Assembly: GCA_964435885.1 (NCBI GenBank)
Contig: CAYTAS010000008.1
Location: 5,953-69,952 of the forward strand
DNA: 64,000 bases
Reading direction: 5' to 3'
From: an uncultured Nitrospira sp.
GTDB taxonomy: Bacteria; Nitrospirota; Nitrospiria; Nitrospirales; Nitrospiraceae
Of this stretch, positions 6,481 to 31,348 are shown one piece after another. The position numbers and the translations under genes were made by a program. The notes below the pieces were generated by a model that worked only from the letters and a program-made list of their open reading frames with translations, was not told where the DNA came from and made no database searches. Positions within the stretch are counted from its first letter, which is position 1, and the number at the start of each line of letters is the position of its first letter.

Positions 6481-7473
6481 TCATGGTTCCGGCGAGCCGA
6501 CACCGGATCCTGGATCGGTGATGGAGACCGGAGCCGCCGATTGCACACGTCCCTTAAACGGCAGATCCAGCAAAGCATAGGGGTTCACGCGCGCGCCGTT
6601 GAGTTTTACGCCCCAATGTAGATGGGGGCCGGTCGCGCGACCGGTGGCGCCCACTTTCCCCACGATCTCTCCGGCCTTCACGAGATCACCCTCCTTGACC
6701 AGCACTTCGGAGAGATGGAAATACATTGAGTACAAGCCGAGTCCGTGGTCCAGGAATACACCCTTCCCTGAGAAAATATGATCGACGGTCAGCCGTACAA
6801 TGCCATCGTTCGTCGCAACGACCTCGGTTCCGAGCGGAGCGCCGATATCCTCGCCGTTGTGAGGATTGCGCGCCTGACCGTTCATAATCCTGACACTGCC
6901 GAAGATCCCGGTTCGTTTGCCGGCTACAGGTTCGACGAACCCCCTCTGCCATAATTTCGTGAGAGAATCGTTTGCCAGCACTTCCTTGACCTGGGCTTGT
7001 TCCGCTTTCCATCGAGCCAAACTCTTTTTATCAAGATCGACCTTGCTTTTCGGTAGTGTGAGGCGCTCCACGTGAAATTGCTCTTTGAGGACCTGTACAT
7101 GGTACGTCATCGTCTGACTCTGCTCTTCAGTCTTGGCTTCGACGGTCAGCTCATGGATTCCCGGTTCATCTTGCAGGTCGATCCCGATCAATCCAATAAC
7201 CCCGCTCGGCTCTTCAGGTCGCGTATCGGGAAAGAAACTGACGGAGCGACCGAGAAAAGTTCCTTGCACGCGAGCGACTCCCCTCTCGGTGGGAATCTTC
7301 ACCATAAGGATTTGCCCTTGCTTGCCGCTATAATGAGCGGTAACGGCATAAGAGCTTGGTGGAGGATCCGCAAAGAGATCGACGGGGAAGAGACCAACAA
7401 GCAGAACGATCGCCCCAAATCGGAACCGCCTGCCGTGACCAGATTGAACTCTCAGATCATGCGCCGGTGTCAT
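6481..7473 (-). CDS. M23-family metallopeptidase, exported
   Basis: HNGEDI (HxxxD) and GPHLHW (HxH) motifs. ATG at 7473 overlaps the pafA TGA (ATGA). Confidence 0.9.
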   Translation of the reverse strand: MTPAHDLRVQSGHGRRFRFGAIVLLVGLFPVDLFADPPPSSYAVTAHYSGKQGQILMVKIPTERGVARVQGTFLGRSVSFFPDTRPEEPSGVIGLIGIDLQDEPGIHELTVEAKTEEQSQTMTYHVQVLKEQFHVERLTLPKSKVDLDKKSLARWKAEQAQVKEVLANDSLTKLWQRGFVEPVAGKRTGIFGSVRIMNGQARNPHNGEDIGAPLGTEVVATNDGIVRLTVDHIFSGKGVFLDHGLGLYSMYFHLSEVLVKEGDLVKAGEIVGKVGATGRATGPHLHWGVKLNGARVNPYALLDLPFKGRVQSAAPVSITDPGSGVGSPEP

Positions 7474-8846
7474 CGATAAAACCGTCCTCCGGATACTTGG
7501 GAAATCAATTCTTCGACACGCCGATTGACTGCGCTGAACGGATCCATACACAGAATCGTTTCTTCCCAGTACCCGTTCAATTTGAGATAGGTCCAATCGA
7601 CCGTATAGGATCGGTTCTTTGCCCGTGCGAATCGAATAAAGTCTCCACGGACTTTGGCCCTCGTCGTCTGCGGCGGCGTGGACATGGCTCGTTGAACCGC
7701 CCCTTCCTCCACCACCCGTTCGGTCAACCCGCGAGACTCCATCAGATAATACAACCCACGCGTCCGCTTCACATCATGGTACTGCAAATCCAACAAGAAC
7801 ACCCGCGGGTCGTCCCATCCGCAATGTCGCTTCTCGACGTACGATTGGATCACATGTTTCTTGGTGATCCAGTCGATCCGATGCGTGAGCTGCATGGGAT
7901 CTTCCTCCAACTGCTGAAGCACGGACTCCCACTTGTCGCACACATCGTCCAGGATCGCCTCGTGATCCTCCTGAGTCAAATATTCTCGAGCCCGCGCCAA
8001 ATAGACTCGTTGGATTTCGATCGCCGTCATTTGCCGACCGTCGTCCAGCTTGACTTTCTTTTTCAGCGTCGGATCCCTCGACACTTCCCTAATGGCTTTG
8101 ACCGAATCTTCCAATTCCATCCCATGCACCGTGTACCCTTCTTCGATCATCGACAGCACCAACGCCGCCGTCCCCACCTTGAGGTACGTCGCGTACTCGG
8201 ACATGTTCGAATCTCCGACGATGATATGGAGCCGTCGATAGCGTTCCGCATCAGAATGGGGTTCATCTCGCGTATTGATGATGCTCCTGGAAGAGGTCGT
8301 GGAGGATGACGTTTTTTCATGAATATGCTGAGCCCTCTGCGAGATGAAGTATTGCGGTTTTCCTGAGACTTTCAAGACTTTTCCCGCCCCGCTGAAGACT
8401 TGTCGCGTCACAAAAAACGGGATCAGCTGTTCGGTGACTTTCCAAAAATCCACGTCACGCCGCATGAGGAAGTTCTCGTGACATCCGTACGTATTGCCCA
8501 GGGAATCCGTATTGTTCTTAAAAATGTAGATCTCCCCGGACAGACCTTCCTCGCGAAGCCGCTCTTCTGCCGCCGGCAAACAGGCTTCCAACAGCCGTTC
8601 TCCGGCCTTGTCATGGACCACAAGATCAAGGATGTTGTCGCATTCCGGAGTCGAGTACTCAGGATGACAGCCGGTGTCTTGATAAAACCGCGCCCCATTG
8701 ACTAAAAAGGCGTTCGACGGCCAGCTGTTGGGAATCAATCCTTCGAAGATGTACCCGAGCACCTTCTCCATGGGAAGGTAGATTCGGCCATTGGGAGAAA
8801 AAATGAGGCCGTACTCGTTCTCGAGACCGAATATCCTTTGTTTCAT
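7470..8846 (-). CDS. pafA: Pup--protein ligase
   Basis: RIFGLENEYG, FYQDTGCHPEYSTPEC, YGCHENF, RRLHIIVGDSNM and LDLQYHD motifs; last gene of the proteasome cluster. Confidence 0.93.
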   Translation of the reverse strand: MKQRIFGLENEYGLIFSPNGRIYLPMEKVLGYIFEGLIPNSWPSNAFLVNGARFYQDTGCHPEYSTPECDNILDLVVHDKAGERLLEACLPAAEERLREEGLSGEIYIFKNNTDSLGNTYGCHENFLMRRDVDFWKVTEQLIPFFVTRQVFSGAGKVLKVSGKPQYFISQRAQHIHEKTSSSTTSSRSIINTRDEPHSDAERYRRLHIIVGDSNMSEYATYLKVGTAALVLSMIEEGYTVHGMELEDSVKAIREVSRDPTLKKKVKLDDGRQMTAIEIQRVYLARAREYLTQEDHEAILDDVCDKWESVLQQLEEDPMQLTHRIDWITKKHVIQSYVEKRHCGWDDPRVFLLDLQYHDVKRTRGLYYLMESRGLTERVVEEGAVQRAMSTPPQTTRAKVRGDFIRFARAKNRSYTVDWTYLKLNGYWEETILCMDPFSAVNRRVEELISQVSGGRFYR

Positions 8847-8879
8847 AGGACCTGATGGCGACATACAGGCTATAGAAAC

Positions 8880-8935: not shown

Positions 8936-9622
8936 CTAGGGAGAGAGGATTCGACGGATGTCGCTCACCGACAAACGGCGAAACTTTCGGCCGGTGCGGG
9001 ATCGGTCTAAGACCGCCACTTCCAAGCCTTCGGGTTGCAACTTCTGATTCGCCGTTTGTTCAAGCGCCGCGACGCACAGTTTCAACGCCGCGTCGAGTGC
9101 GGGAGTTCGCTCGGGGCTCGTGTCCTTCAAAACAGTCTGGACGGCTTCCGATTTTCCCCCGATCACCGCAAAATTCTTTTCATCGATGATGCTGCCGTCG
9201 AATGAAATACGATAGATCTCATTCGGGTACTGGGTGGTACCGGCCTGCACGACTAGAATCTCCACCTCAAGCGGTTTCATTTCCTGGCTGAATACGGTGC
9301 CGAGGCTTTGCGAGTAGCCGTTGGCCAGAGAACGGCCGGTGACATCCTCACGACTATACATAAACCCTTTGAGATCGGCGTGACGGATTCCTGCCTTCCT
9401 CAGATTCTCGAATTCGCTATACTTGCCGGCCCCGGCAAACGCGATGTTGTCGTAAATTTCGGAAACTTTGTGCAGAGAAGCGCTCGGGTTATCCGCCGTC
9501 AACAGGATGCCGTCGGCATACTCCATCGCGATGATGGAACGGCCTTTCGCAATCCCTTTCTTGGCATACTCGGCCTTGTCCTGCATCATCTGTTCGGGGG
9601 AGACGTAATAGGGCATCGGCAT
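8936..9622 (-). CDS. prcA: 20S proteasome alpha subunit
   Basis: PYYVSPEQMMQDKAEYAKKGIAKGRS N-terminus, AFAGAGKYSEFENLR. Confidence 0.95.
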   Translation of the reverse strand: MPMPYYVSPEQMMQDKAEYAKKGIAKGRSIIAMEYADGILLTADNPSASLHKVSEIYDNIAFAGAGKYSEFENLRKAGIRHADLKGFMYSREDVTGRSLANGYSQSLGTVFSQEMKPLEVEILVVQAGTTQYPNEIYRISFDGSIIDEKNFAVIGGKSEAVQTVLKDTSPERTPALDAALKLCVAALEQTANQKLQPEGLEVAVLDRSRTGRKFRRLSVSDIRRILSP

Positions 9623-9624
9623 GA

Positions 9625-10440
9625 TCAGGTCTCCCTTGAACGACGTGCGGTCATCATCTCGGCATACACAGCTTTCAGGTTGTCATCGGCGACATCGGTG
9701 ATGCCTTGAGCAGTCACAAACTTGGCGGTCGGATAGATCCCCCGTATGAGGTCCGGTCCACCTGTCCCGACATCGTCATCCGCGGCATTGTAGAGCGATA
9801 GCAAGCCCAGCCGGAGCGCATCAGCATCTGAAAGATTCTTCCGAAAATGCTCTCGCATCGTATTGCGGGCGTCTTTCCCGCCGGAACCGATGGCATGGTA
9901 GTCGGATTCCTCGTATCTCCCACCCGTGATATCGTACTTGAAGATGCGCCCTTCCTCGCGTTTGACGTCGTACCCGACATACAGCGGCATCACCACCAGC
10001 CCCTGGAACACCATCGGGAGATTCGCTTTGACCATCTGCCCAAGCTTATTGGCCTTTCCTTCGCACGACAACACCGTCCCTTCCAGTTTCTCGTAGTGCT
10101 CCAGCTCGGTCTGAAACAATTTGGCCATCTCGATGCAAGGCCCGGCCGCTCCGGCAATCGCCATCGCCGACCATTCATCGATCTTGAACACCTTCTCAAT
10201 ACGGCGATCCGCGATCTGAAATCCCTCCGTCGCTCGACGATCTCCGGCGATCACGATACCATCGCGATACTTGATCGCCAACACCGTCGTCGCGTACGGC
10301 ACGGCCATGGGCCCGACGGTTCGCATCTGGTCCGATGTCTGGATCGAGCCATGCCCCCCCGGCGTCAATCCCGGGTAATGTTTGGTGAGAAAATCGAAAA
10401 AACTGGAGTCGTCGTGATCGGGAAGATACGGCAGCTTCAT
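9625..10440 (-). CDS. prcB: 20S proteasome beta subunit (propeptide plus Thr1)
   Basis: TTVLAIKYRDGIVIAGDRRAT, EKVFKID, GSGG. Start moved to ATG 10440 (MKLPYL). Confidence 0.95.
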   Translation of the reverse strand: MKLPYLPDHDDSSFFDFLTKHYPGLTPGGHGSIQTSDQMRTVGPMAVPYATTVLAIKYRDGIVIAGDRRATEGFQIADRRIEKVFKIDEWSAMAIAGAAGPCIEMAKLFQTELEHYEKLEGTVLSCEGKANKLGQMVKANLPMVFQGLVVMPLYVGYDVKREEGRIFKYDITGGRYEESDYHAIGSGGKDARNTMREHFRKNLSDADALRLGLLSLYNAADDDVGTGGPDLIRGIYPTAKFVTAQGITDVADDNLKAVYAEMMTARRSRET

Positions 10441-10462
10441 CGTGATCTTAGGCCACCATCTC

Positions 10463-11962
10463 TCACACCTGGAGTCTTTCGAGCAAATCATCGATCGAAT
10501 CTGCGGTATCCAACAGTTCTCGTGTCAACGATTGCGTGCCGCGATGCGGATCCATCAGCGGCACTTTCTTGATGGTGTCATTGCCGACATGGAACAGGAC
10601 GGACGTCCAACTCGCGCCGTAGAGCGCATTCGAGAATTTCCGCACACAGCGCCCACGAAAATAGGCGCGTGTTCCGATCGGAGGATTGAGCTCAGCCCGC
10701 TGAACCTCCTCTTCCTCAACGATTCGATCAATGAGGCGACCCCGTTCTAGCGTATAAAATAACCCTTTCTCGGGACGGACATCGTGGTACTGGAGATCCA
10801 TCAGTTTCATTCGTGGGTCACCCCACCCGCACCCTTTGCGCTCCATATAGGACTCGATCAGATAACGCTTGGCCACCCAATCCAACTCCTTCACGAGTAG
10901 CCGCGGGTCGCGTTCCAGTCTGTTCAACACATCATCCCAACGGACCAGCACATCCTGCGTGGCGGCTGTGCAGGGATGGCCGGTATAAAAAGTCTGGGCG
11001 GCTTTCAGGTAGGCTCGCTGAATCGCAATCGCCGTGGTCGGCCTTCCACCGACCAGCTTCACCGTCTGCTTCACATCAAGGTCGCGCGAAACTTGCTTGA
11101 ACACCCGAACCGGCTCATCAAGTTCCAACTGAGGCATGTCGGCTCTACCTTCAAGCAACTCCAACACGATATCCAACGTTCCTACCTTCAGATAGGTGGA
11201 AACTTCGGCCATGTTGGCATCACCCGTGATGACATGCAATCTTCGAAATCGCGCCGCATCGGCATGTGGTTCGTCCCGCGTGTTAATGATCGGACGCTTG
11301 ACCATCGTATTGAGGTCCATGAGACACTCAAAGAAGTCTGCGCGCTGCGAAATTTGATATTCCGCCGGACTGGTCTGGTTTTCCGCGCCGACTTTTCCCG
11401 CTCCGGCAAAGATCGGCCGAGTTACCAGGAATGGGGTCAACACCCGTGCGATCTTGTCAAACGACACGGCCCGGGAAACCAGGTAGTTTTCATGATATCC
11501 ATAGCTGTTGCCTTTGCCGTCTGAATTATTCTTGTATAAAAGACACTGCTCGCTCCCCCTCACTCGAGCCATCTCCTGAAGACTCTTCGCCAGGATTCGC
11601 TCTCCCACACGCTCAAATGCTACAACCTCGCGGGCAGTTGAACATTCCGGCGTCGAATACTCCGGGTGGGCTCCATCGACGTACAAGCGCCCCCCGTTCG
11701 CCAGTACTTTATTCAATTGCCGGTTATAGTCGGGATTGGGACGCTCTCGTTCGCCATCGACTTCAAAGCCCCGAGCATCCAGGAGAGGATTCTCGTTTTC
11801 ATAATCCCAGATCGCTCCGGGCGCCGGCAAATCAGGGTAGTGGCCGATCACGGCCAAAGAAGCGGAGACAGGGTCTATCGCGGACCCGTCCTTTGCGGCA
11901 ATGCCAAACTCCGTCTCAGTGCCGACGACCCGTACACGGTTCGTTGGAGTGTATTCTTGCAT
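10463..11962 (-). CDS. dop: Pup deamidase/depupylase
   Basis: VVGTETEFG, NGGRLYVDGAHPEYSTPEC, SYGYHENY, RRLHVITGDANM. Start moved to 11962. Confidence 0.92.
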   Translation of the reverse strand: MQEYTPTNRVRVVGTETEFGIAAKDGSAIDPVSASLAVIGHYPDLPAPGAIWDYENENPLLDARGFEVDGERERPNPDYNRQLNKVLANGGRLYVDGAHPEYSTPECSTAREVVAFERVGERILAKSLQEMARVRGSEQCLLYKNNSDGKGNSYGYHENYLVSRAVSFDKIARVLTPFLVTRPIFAGAGKVGAENQTSPAEYQISQRADFFECLMDLNTMVKRPIINTRDEPHADAARFRRLHVITGDANMAEVSTYLKVGTLDIVLELLEGRADMPQLELDEPVRVFKQVSRDLDVKQTVKLVGGRPTTAIAIQRAYLKAAQTFYTGHPCTAATQDVLVRWDDVLNRLERDPRLLVKELDWVAKRYLIESYMERKGCGWGDPRMKLMDLQYHDVRPEKGLFYTLERGRLIDRIVEEEEVQRAELNPPIGTRAYFRGRCVRKFSNALYGASWTSVLFHVGNDTIKKVPLMDPHRGTQSLTRELLDTADSIDDLLERLQV

Positions 11963-11969
11963 ACGATCG

Positions 11970-13739
11970 CTAGAGATAATGGCCGGTGCTGATGGTTTCA
12001 ATTTGCCGATGTTCCGCCGGCCCGCCGCTGATGGTCCGGATGTGAACGATCTTTTCACCTTTCTTGCCGGCGACTTTCGCCCAATCATCCGGATTGGTCG
12101 TGTTAGGAAGGTCCTCGTGCTCCTTGAACTCTTCGCGAATGGCGCGTATCAAGTCGTCTGAACGCAGGCCCGAACCTTCTTGCGCGATCACACGCTTCAC
12201 GGCAAACTTCTTCGCGCGCGAGACGATCCCTTCGATCAGCGCCCCGCTGGCAAAGTCCCGGAAGTAGAGCACTTCCTTTTCACCGTTCGCATACGTCACT
12301 TCGATGAACTTGTTTTCCTCGCTGGCCGCATACATCGTTTCGACCGTCACCGATGTTAATCGATCAACGAGGGCCTGTCGATCTCCTCCATGTCGCGCTA
12401 AATCCTCATCGGCGAACGGGAGATCCGTCGAGATATATTTCGAAAAAATGTCTCGTGCCGCCGTGGCATCCGGCCTTCCCACTTTGACCTTGACGTCCAA
12501 TCGGCCCGCACGAAGCACGGCAGGATCGATCAAGTCCTGGCGATTACTTGCCCCGATGACGATGACATTCCGCAACCGCTCTACCCCATCGATCTCGGAG
12601 AGGAATTGGGGAACGATCGTGGACTCAATGTCCGACGAGATCCCCGTCCCGCGAGTCCGAAACAGCGCGTCCATCTCATCGAAAAAGACGATCACCGGAT
12701 GGCCGTCCTCGGCCCGTTCTTTTGCCTTTTTGAAGACCTCCCGCACCTGTCGTTCCGATTCACCCACGTACTTATTCAGCAGTTCGGGTCCTTTGACATG
12801 GAGAAAGTAACTCCGAATTTCTTTACCGGCTCGATGGCCCAATTTCTTGGCGATCGAGTTCGCCACGGCTTTCGCAATCAGTGTCTTTCCGCAACCAGGC
12901 GGACCATAGAGCAGAACTCCTTTGGGCGCGCTGAGTTTATACTCGGAAAACACCTGTGGATGCAGGAACGGCAGTTCGACGGCATCGCGCACGTGTTCTA
13001 ATTCCTTTTGAAGACCGCCGATATGCTCGTAGTCGACGTCAGGAACCTCTTCTAATACGAGCTCCGCCGCTTCGGACTTCGGCAACTTTTCGATCACATA
13101 GCCTGAACGGGAATCATACAGGAGATGATCCCCGACGCTCAGCCGTTCCGCCAGCAGCGGATCACCCAACTCGGCCACTTTCTCTTCATCGAAATGGAGC
13201 GTCACGAGGGCCCGCCCCCCCTCCAGCACGTCTTTGAGTCGAACGACCTCGCCCTGACTATCGAATCCCTTCACCTCGATCACATTGAGCGCTTCATTGA
13301 GAACAACTTCTCGTCCCTTACGCAACTCCGTCGGCCTGATCGAGGGATGGAGACTGACCTTCATTTTCCGTCCCGACACATACACATTGCCGGTTCCGTC
13401 GGCGTTCATGCTTGAAAAAATGGCATACGCCGACGGCGGCGCCGTCAGTTTTTCAACTTCAGTCCGGAGCGCCTCGATCTGGGCCTTTGCTTCCTGCAGC
13501 GTTGCGGCAAGCCTTTCGTTTTGCTTATTGGCTTGATCGAGTTGATGTCGTGACTGATACAATCGACGAATCTCTTCTTCCATCGACTGAATCTGGACAC
13601 GCAGTTTGTCCACTTCCCGAGTGTGTTCGTCGTTCTTAGGGATCATCTCTCCTTCACCCTCAGACAGCCGATTCCTCATCTTCTTGACGGAATCTCGGAG
13701 GGACCGGAGTCGATTTGGCTGACCCTTGTTTTCCGCCAT
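11970..13739 (-). CDS. arc: Proteasome-associated AAA ATPase (ARC/Mpa)
   Basis: N-terminal coiled coil, GPPGCGKT, KGPELLNKYVGE, FFDEMD, and C-terminal GHYL docking motif. Confidence 0.95.
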   Translation of the reverse strand: MAENKGQPNRLRSLRDSVKKMRNRLSEGEGEMIPKNDEHTREVDKLRVQIQSMEEEIRRLYQSRHQLDQANKQNERLAATLQEAKAQIEALRTEVEKLTAPPSAYAIFSSMNADGTGNVYVSGRKMKVSLHPSIRPTELRKGREVVLNEALNVIEVKGFDSQGEVVRLKDVLEGGRALVTLHFDEEKVAELGDPLLAERLSVGDHLLYDSRSGYVIEKLPKSEAAELVLEEVPDVDYEHIGGLQKELEHVRDAVELPFLHPQVFSEYKLSAPKGVLLYGPPGCGKTLIAKAVANSIAKKLGHRAGKEIRSYFLHVKGPELLNKYVGESERQVREVFKKAKERAEDGHPVIVFFDEMDALFRTRGTGISSDIESTIVPQFLSEIDGVERLRNVIVIGASNRQDLIDPAVLRAGRLDVKVKVGRPDATAARDIFSKYISTDLPFADEDLARHGGDRQALVDRLTSVTVETMYAASEENKFIEVTYANGEKEVLYFRDFASGALIEGIVSRAKKFAVKRVIAQEGSGLRSDDLIRAIREEFKEHEDLPNTTNPDDWAKVAGKKGEKIVHIRTISGGPAEHRQIETISTGHYL

Positions 13740-13798
13740 ATCGAAACGACAAGGTGATTCGCGACATCGGATGGACCGCGGAATGATCTGGTTTTTGG

Positions 13799-13827
13799 AT
13801 TCTAACACCCGACCTAGGGGTGGTCAA
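13799..13827 (-). promoter_or_regulatory. Sigma-70 promoter of the proteasome operon
   Basis: TTGACC-17 nt-TAGAAT with TGn extension. Confidence 0.7.
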
Positions 13828-30892: not shown

Positions 30893-31348
30893 TTATGGAA
30901 TCTCGTCGAAGATGCCGGACTCGATCGGAGGCAACGGAGCAGTTTGACGTGGTGGACCCGGGAGGACAGTCGCCGTTCCTACTTGATTCGCGCCCTGGAT
31001 GAGGCCGATAGACAGCTGGGGACCGAAGGTCATGACGGCTCCACTCCAGGCCTGCCCCGTCGTTGGATTTCGAAAGTTATAGGATTGAACACTCTGTCCA
31101 GGGGAGAACAGAAACCCCTGTGTCCCCTGCTGATCAGCATACAGGCTCCCCCCGCCTAACCTAAACAAAGTACCGATCCCTCCATCAAAAGAACGCACAC
31201 TCGAAGCGCCTGACACGCTTTGCGCCCATACCGATGGGCAGGCATTCAGGCCAACGATCATCAGAACACACAACATACCGCCGATCGTACCTCCCCATCG
31301 AAACCAAGAACATGACTCTTCAATGCAAGGAGGAGAATGAATCTTCAT
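30893..31348 (-). CDS. Exported hypothetical protein
   Basis: Signal-like segment ending VWA, Gly-rich body; start uncertain. Confidence 0.55.
   Translation of the reverse strand: MKIHSPPCIEESCSWFRWGGTIGGMLCVLMIVGLNACPSVWAQSVSGASSVRSFDGGIGTLFRLGGGSLYADQQGTQGFLFSPGQSVQSYNFRNPTTGQAWSGAVMTFGPQLSIGLIQGANQVGTATVLPGPPRQTAPLPPIESGIFDEIP

Follow-up and report, generated by a model that had tools for sequence, protein, structure and literature searches.

The pup gene of an uncultured Nitrospira is encoded apart from its Pup-proteasome operon

The 64,000-nucleotide stretch analysed here, which we call the window, corresponds to C8:5953-69952, C8 being one contig of a 241-contig draft assembly (a MAG with an estimated contamination of 3.3%). 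On its minus strand the window carries arc, dop, prcB, prcA and pafA in this order, and the NCBIfam equivalog models, all five of which are matched above their curated cut-offs, confirm the operon order proposed in an earlier reading made from the letters alone (the sequence-only reading). The gene for the proteasome AAA ATPase, arc/mpa, spans 11970..13808 when given as its longest open reading frame, with the likely start at the ATG at 13739 (TIGR03689, 738.4 bits against a cut-off of 504.75). It is followed by the depupylase gene dop (10463..11962; TIGR03688, 538.9 bits against 492.3), whose product has 499 aa when translation begins at the ATG at 11962; the longest frame for dop extends to 12088 and thereby into arc, an overlap that the ORF caller probably introduced. 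The 20S proteasome is encoded by prcB (9625..10440; beta subunit with propeptide; TIGR03690, 295.7 bits against 191.9) and prcA (8936..9622; alpha subunit; TIGR03691, 309.1 bits against 139), and the Pup-protein ligase by pafA (7470..8864; TIGR03686, 561.9 bits against 551.3).

The catalytic motifs of Dop and PafA and the docking tail of Arc are intact, as the sequence-only reading had noted. Dop aligns over its full length with the solved Dop 4B0R (442 bits), with conservation of GxExEYG, of the catalytic aspartate (LYVD) and of the LYVD..HPEYSTPE stretch, while PafA aligns end to end with the solved PafA 4B0T (377 bits), with GLENEYG (the GxExEYG motif) and the catalytic aspartate (FYQD) conserved. 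The translation of arc ends in ...STGHYL, so that the GxYL proteasome-docking tail is present.

The canonical position of pup, between dop and prcB, is empty. The spacer there (10441..10462 on the minus strand; GAGATGGTGGCCTAAGATCACG on the coding strand) is exactly 22 nt long, as quoted earlier, runs from the dop stop codon TGA (10463-10465) to the prcB ATG (10438-10440) and holds no open reading frame, so the window lacks the canonical order with pup between these two genes; that arrangement is a trait of the textbook locus, not of the biochemistry. The absence of pup extends to the rest of the window, in agreement with the sequence-only reading: a Pup HMM search over the whole genome returned no match within it, and a six-frame scan found a single stop-to-stop frame ending in GGE (31134-31340). 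This 68-codon frame, ending in QGGE, was rejected as a pup gene: it lacks a usable start codon and is not matched by the Pup HMM.

The same genome-wide search over all 241 contigs revealed one strong Pup match, on contig C32 (PF05639, 76.6 bits, E 9.5e-21, cut-off 27; TIGR03687, 61.2 bits, cut-off 41.45). The gene (C32:5451-5648) encodes a 65-aa protein, MEKQERKQEPRRDPQGKEEVKANPKVVEAGKKIKEDIDKLVDEIDDVLEKNAEEFVKNYVQKGGE, with the canonical GGE end (...FVKNYVQKGGE). It follows hppA, which encodes a pyrophosphate-energised pump, and is followed by recJ and then relA/spoT. A promoter-like site of sigma-70 type (TTGACG-N18-TATGGT; C32:5357-5386) and a Shine-Dalgarno sequence (GGGAGGTG) lie upstream of pup and are conserved across Nitrospira, being kept even in lineages whose other flanking sequence has diverged; a GC-rich inverted repeat, not scored by the terminator scan, is found at the 3' end of hppA, ahead of pup. 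A second promoter-like site, TTGACA-17-TACAGT, is located between pup and recJ (C32:5711-5739; L001:1755-1783). We found no terminator-like site 3' of the C32 pup, and in family f4 of the order the gap between pup and recJ is only ~20 nt, so that pup may be transcribed together with recJ-relA. The headline of the sequence-only reading, that this is a Pup-proteasome operon with no pup gene, thus fails, because an intact, canonical 65-aa GGE Pup, the very finding that reading had named as decisive against it, is encoded elsewhere in the same genome. Among the four explanations it had offered for the missing gene, the relocation of pup is the one that stands, the C32 gene occupying a position conserved across the order, while a UBact-like tag, a tag-independent proteasome and a loss during assembly do not hold, as discussed below.

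A search for UBact, which had been suggested along with that for Pup, led to contig C22, where a complete UBact-type locus (C22:18988-25725) comprises an AAA ATPase, a Dop-like protein, UBact, PrcB-like and PrcA-like subunits and a PafA-like protein. Conjugation-proteasome loci of this kind were reportedly described from Gram-negative phyla by Lehmann and colleagues in BBRC in 2017. The tag (C22:22352-22543; 63 aa; NF033388, 74.5 bits; PF20513, 69.3 bits) ends in ...RYRQRTGE and is encoded between the dop-like and prcB-like genes, an arrangement absent from the window's operon, which differs also in having Pup-type enzymes and a cognate GGE Pup. That UBact, or another divergent tag from a different locus, serves the window's enzymes gains some credit from the presence of UBact in the genome, but we regard it as very unlikely. 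UBact sits in its own complete locus with its own enzymes and 20S genes, and these C22 enzymes do not reach the Pup-type cut-offs (434 against 505, 466 against 492 and 323 against 551), which the enzymes of the window exceed. Moreover, most genomes in the window's genus carry UBact, but family f2 lacks it throughout, as do several genomes of f3 and f4, and the sampled members of these three families have pup unlinked from prcB all the same. The operon lacks pup in the same way in relatives that have no UBact, so the arrangement can be explained without it, and a canonical, strongly conserved Pup is present in any case. Judged by family scores and co-occurrence, PafA and Dop of the window would act on the C32 Pup and not on UBact, and UBact appears as a parallel system, not as the missing tag.

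Pup and the operon lie on separate contigs of a MAG, and the non-zero estimated contamination raises the question of whether the C32 pup was binned in from a contaminant genome. We consider this extremely improbable: the GC content of C32 agrees with that of C8 (56.4% and 56.2%), the hppA, recJ and relA of C32 are 88–96% identical to their counterparts in named Nitrospira MAGs, and C32 is collinear with the segment of the chromosome that adjoins the operon in the closed relative G023. In that genome the interval from operon to pup measures 51 kb and maps collinearly onto C8:13965-40094 and then onto C32:23630-668, with the exception of a 2.7-kb stretch that maps to C34 instead. This suggests that C8 and C32 are neighbours. 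A ~31-kb part of C8 (C8:40100-71493; ~34150-64000 in the window) has no counterpart in the syntenic interval of G023 and may represent an insertion or a rearrangement. With this ~31 kb of C8 added beyond the collinear part, the distance from the operon to pup, which lies upstream, would come to at least ~80 kb, provided that the two contigs are indeed adjacent.

The split arrangement is shared by the whole order to which the window's genome belongs. We surveyed 151 genomes of the class Nitrospiria with Pup and PrcB models, 80 of them from this order, and Pup is retained in 148. In the other orders pup is found 110–350 nt upstream of prcB on the same strand in 66 of 68 pup-bearing genomes, the two exceptions being a contig break and a genome without a strong prcB match; in the window's order pup is adjacent to prcB in none of the 80. 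In 48 genomes of this order both genes fall on one contig, and the distance between them ranges from 44 kb to more than 1 Mb. It is 44–64 kb in the genus of the window, reaches 220 kb in the other genera of its family, and in family f2 runs from 92 kb to beyond 1 Mb. The order hppA-pup-recJ-relA recurs in the Nitrospira, Nitrospiraceae and Nitrospirales loci L028-L043, except for those cut by contig ends and for L040, where hppA alone was detected beside pup, and it is found in representatives of all four families (f1-f4) of the order. The linked order arc-dop-pup-prcB-prcA-pafA occurs in two MAGs labelled "Nitrospiria bacterium", in Acidimicrobiia and in other Actinobacteria. Read most simply, this distribution means that pup was relocated once, at the base of the Nitrospira-containing order, and has kept its new place since. 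With an intact canonical pup on another contig, in a position that is order-wide, we are dealing with a split locus and not with a tag-less system.

In family f11, which belongs to another order of the class, a second Pup-like paralogue exists besides the canonical operon pup (L108:1576-1794 and L109:4913-5116). It combines a Pup-like body with a UBact-like R-S-G-E tail (...VQRSGE) and adjoins a sigma-54-type activator and folE. We considered these second copies (genomes G048 and G057) as possible duplication intermediates and rejected them, as they are not beside hppA or recJ and end in RSGE, not GGE.

The dop-prcB junction was compared in 12 relatives, as had been proposed, and in 11 of them, including a closed single-contig genome, it is as tight and pup-less as in the window, with a spacer of 0–30 nt. 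The sole relative with a long spacer is G002, of the same genus, where an insert of ~190 nt (L025:1159-1353) is non-coding and palindromic, with terminal inverted repeats (CAGGATGCTGAAAAAG...CATTTTGAGCATCCTG), and looks like a small palindromic mobile element. The idea that the assembly simply dropped ~200 bp with pup at this junction draws on the draft state of the genome, in 241 contigs, and on nothing more direct; as the same tight junction recurs in 11 independently assembled relatives, one of them closed, as each of the relatives compared has a single pup, located at the conserved site between hppA and recJ (the f11 paralogues belonging to another order), and as the flanking reading frames are intact, there is next to no likelihood left for it. 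Nor does the spacer look like the scar of a clean excision, as it had struck the earlier reader. We considered its TAA as a remnant of the pup stop codon and rejected this, since close relatives do not share the triplet. The junction is no recent scar either, having lacked pup from the base of the order onwards.

Selection on the system has been strong. Pup is 85–97% identical across the genus, and dN/dS, calculated from the closer pairs alone since synonymous sites are saturated against distant relatives, amounts to 0.013–0.027 for pup, 0.045–0.06 for dop and ~0.08 for prcB. Purifying selection acts strongly on pup, dop and pafA (the dN/dS figures being those for pup, dop and prcB), so a tag-independent proteasome, which had been among the explanations put forward, is unnecessary. 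Such a proteasome, or a decaying system with pafA and dop as relics, has only the absence of pup from the operon to speak for it, and hardly any probability remains for it given dN/dS of 0.01–0.09 for dop, prcB and pup, reading frames free of disruptions, conserved catalytic residues, enzymes above the equivalog cut-offs and the retention of Pup almost throughout the class.

It is very likely, then, that the window's Pup system is normal and functional, with its tag gene encoded in trans. Starting from the gene content, conservation and relocation that we observe, and taking the biochemical steps from the family membership of the components, we propose that it works as follows. In the common ancestor of the order, pup would have moved away from its original place between dop and prcB, and it would now be transcribed from its own conserved sigma-70-like promoter and translated from a strong Shine-Dalgarno sequence. 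The product, PupE, with its GGE end, would be ligated by PafA to substrate lysines without prior deamidation, a step that is not needed because the C-terminus of Pup is already a glutamate. Arc would then bind Pup and thread the conjugate into the PrcAB core, while Dop would serve as the depupylase that removes Pup.

The gene order in pupylation loci has been described as 'rigidly conserved' (Barandun et al., 2012; PMC3511204) and Pup as 'invariably' adjacent to a gene of the PafA family (Iyer et al., 2008; PMC2588565). The taxonomic order to which the window's genome belongs is an exception to both generalisations. In the locus of Mycobacterium tuberculosis, mpa-dop-pup-prcB-prcA...pafA (PMC3511204), pup occupies the classical slot. 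The Nitrospira system shares with the actinobacterial one its six components, from the same equivalog families, and the order of the five enzyme and proteasome genes, and the C-terminal half of its Pup is highly similar (...DEIDDVLE.NAE.FV..YVQKGG[EQ]). It differs in that pup is not between dop and prcB but at least 44 kb away, with a promoter-like site of its own, and in that the tag is PupE (GGE), which does not require deamidation. Closer by, sister orders retain arc-dop-pup-prcB-prcA-pafA, for example at L047 (JBDSOK010000043) and L049 (DATNMI010000142), where arc, dop, prcB, prcA and pafA are 53–75% identical to those of the window and the matched part of Pup 78–81%.

Two systems side by side are known from the same phylum. 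Leptospirillum ferrooxidans has two complete loci, L1 and L2, with one tag ending in GGE and the other without GGE (PMC3511204, Fig. 2 legend); the latter is a UBact-type tag. The window's genome likewise contains two complete, divergent conjugation-proteasome systems. In Leptospirillum, however, the two loci are reported to share one context, each with its tag gene present, while here the UBact locus keeps its tag and the tag gene of the Pup locus is distant. No description of an unlinked pup in Nitrospira was found in the full-text literature that we searched.

Separation of the tag from its enzymes appears to occur elsewhere. Several MAGs of Rokubacteria, Methylomirabilota and Binatia (L046, L050, L055, L098, L051 and L048) carry canonical pup genes ending in GGE or GGQ, and no arc, dop, prcB or pafA was found within ~6 kb of pup at these loci, so pup may have become unlinked independently outside Nitrospirota. 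At several of these loci the neighbour of pup on one side is a dCTP-deaminase-like gene and on the other a LysR regulator, after which comes an AIR-synthase/SelD-like gene; one Methylomirabilota contig (L065) has a canonical pup locus.

What might the relocation have brought about? It could have put the tag under separate control, through its own promoter and possible read-through into recJ-relA, so that the supply of Pup would be tuned independently of the ligase, the depupylase and the proteasome, perhaps in coupling with stringent-response or DNA-repair genes, and a free-standing pup might even be shared with, or compete with, the UBact machinery. We offer this as speculation that we ourselves think unlikely to be right as a whole.

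In summary, the window displays a fully canonical system that departs from others in how its genes are arranged and in which no tag is missing. The apparent anomaly is thereby removed: these nitrite oxidisers run neither a tag-less proteasome nor one that depends on an unknown tag. The 'rigidly conserved' gene order, a rule drawn mostly from Actinobacteria, does not hold for an entire order of Nitrospirota, owing to one ancient relocation, and pup appears to be unlinked in Rokubacteria and Methylomirabilota too. Pipelines for annotation or genome comparison that search for pup next to dop and prcB and nowhere else will misscore these lineages as pup-less. With Pup and UBact side by side, Nitrospira is a natural place to test the specificity between tags and their enzymes.
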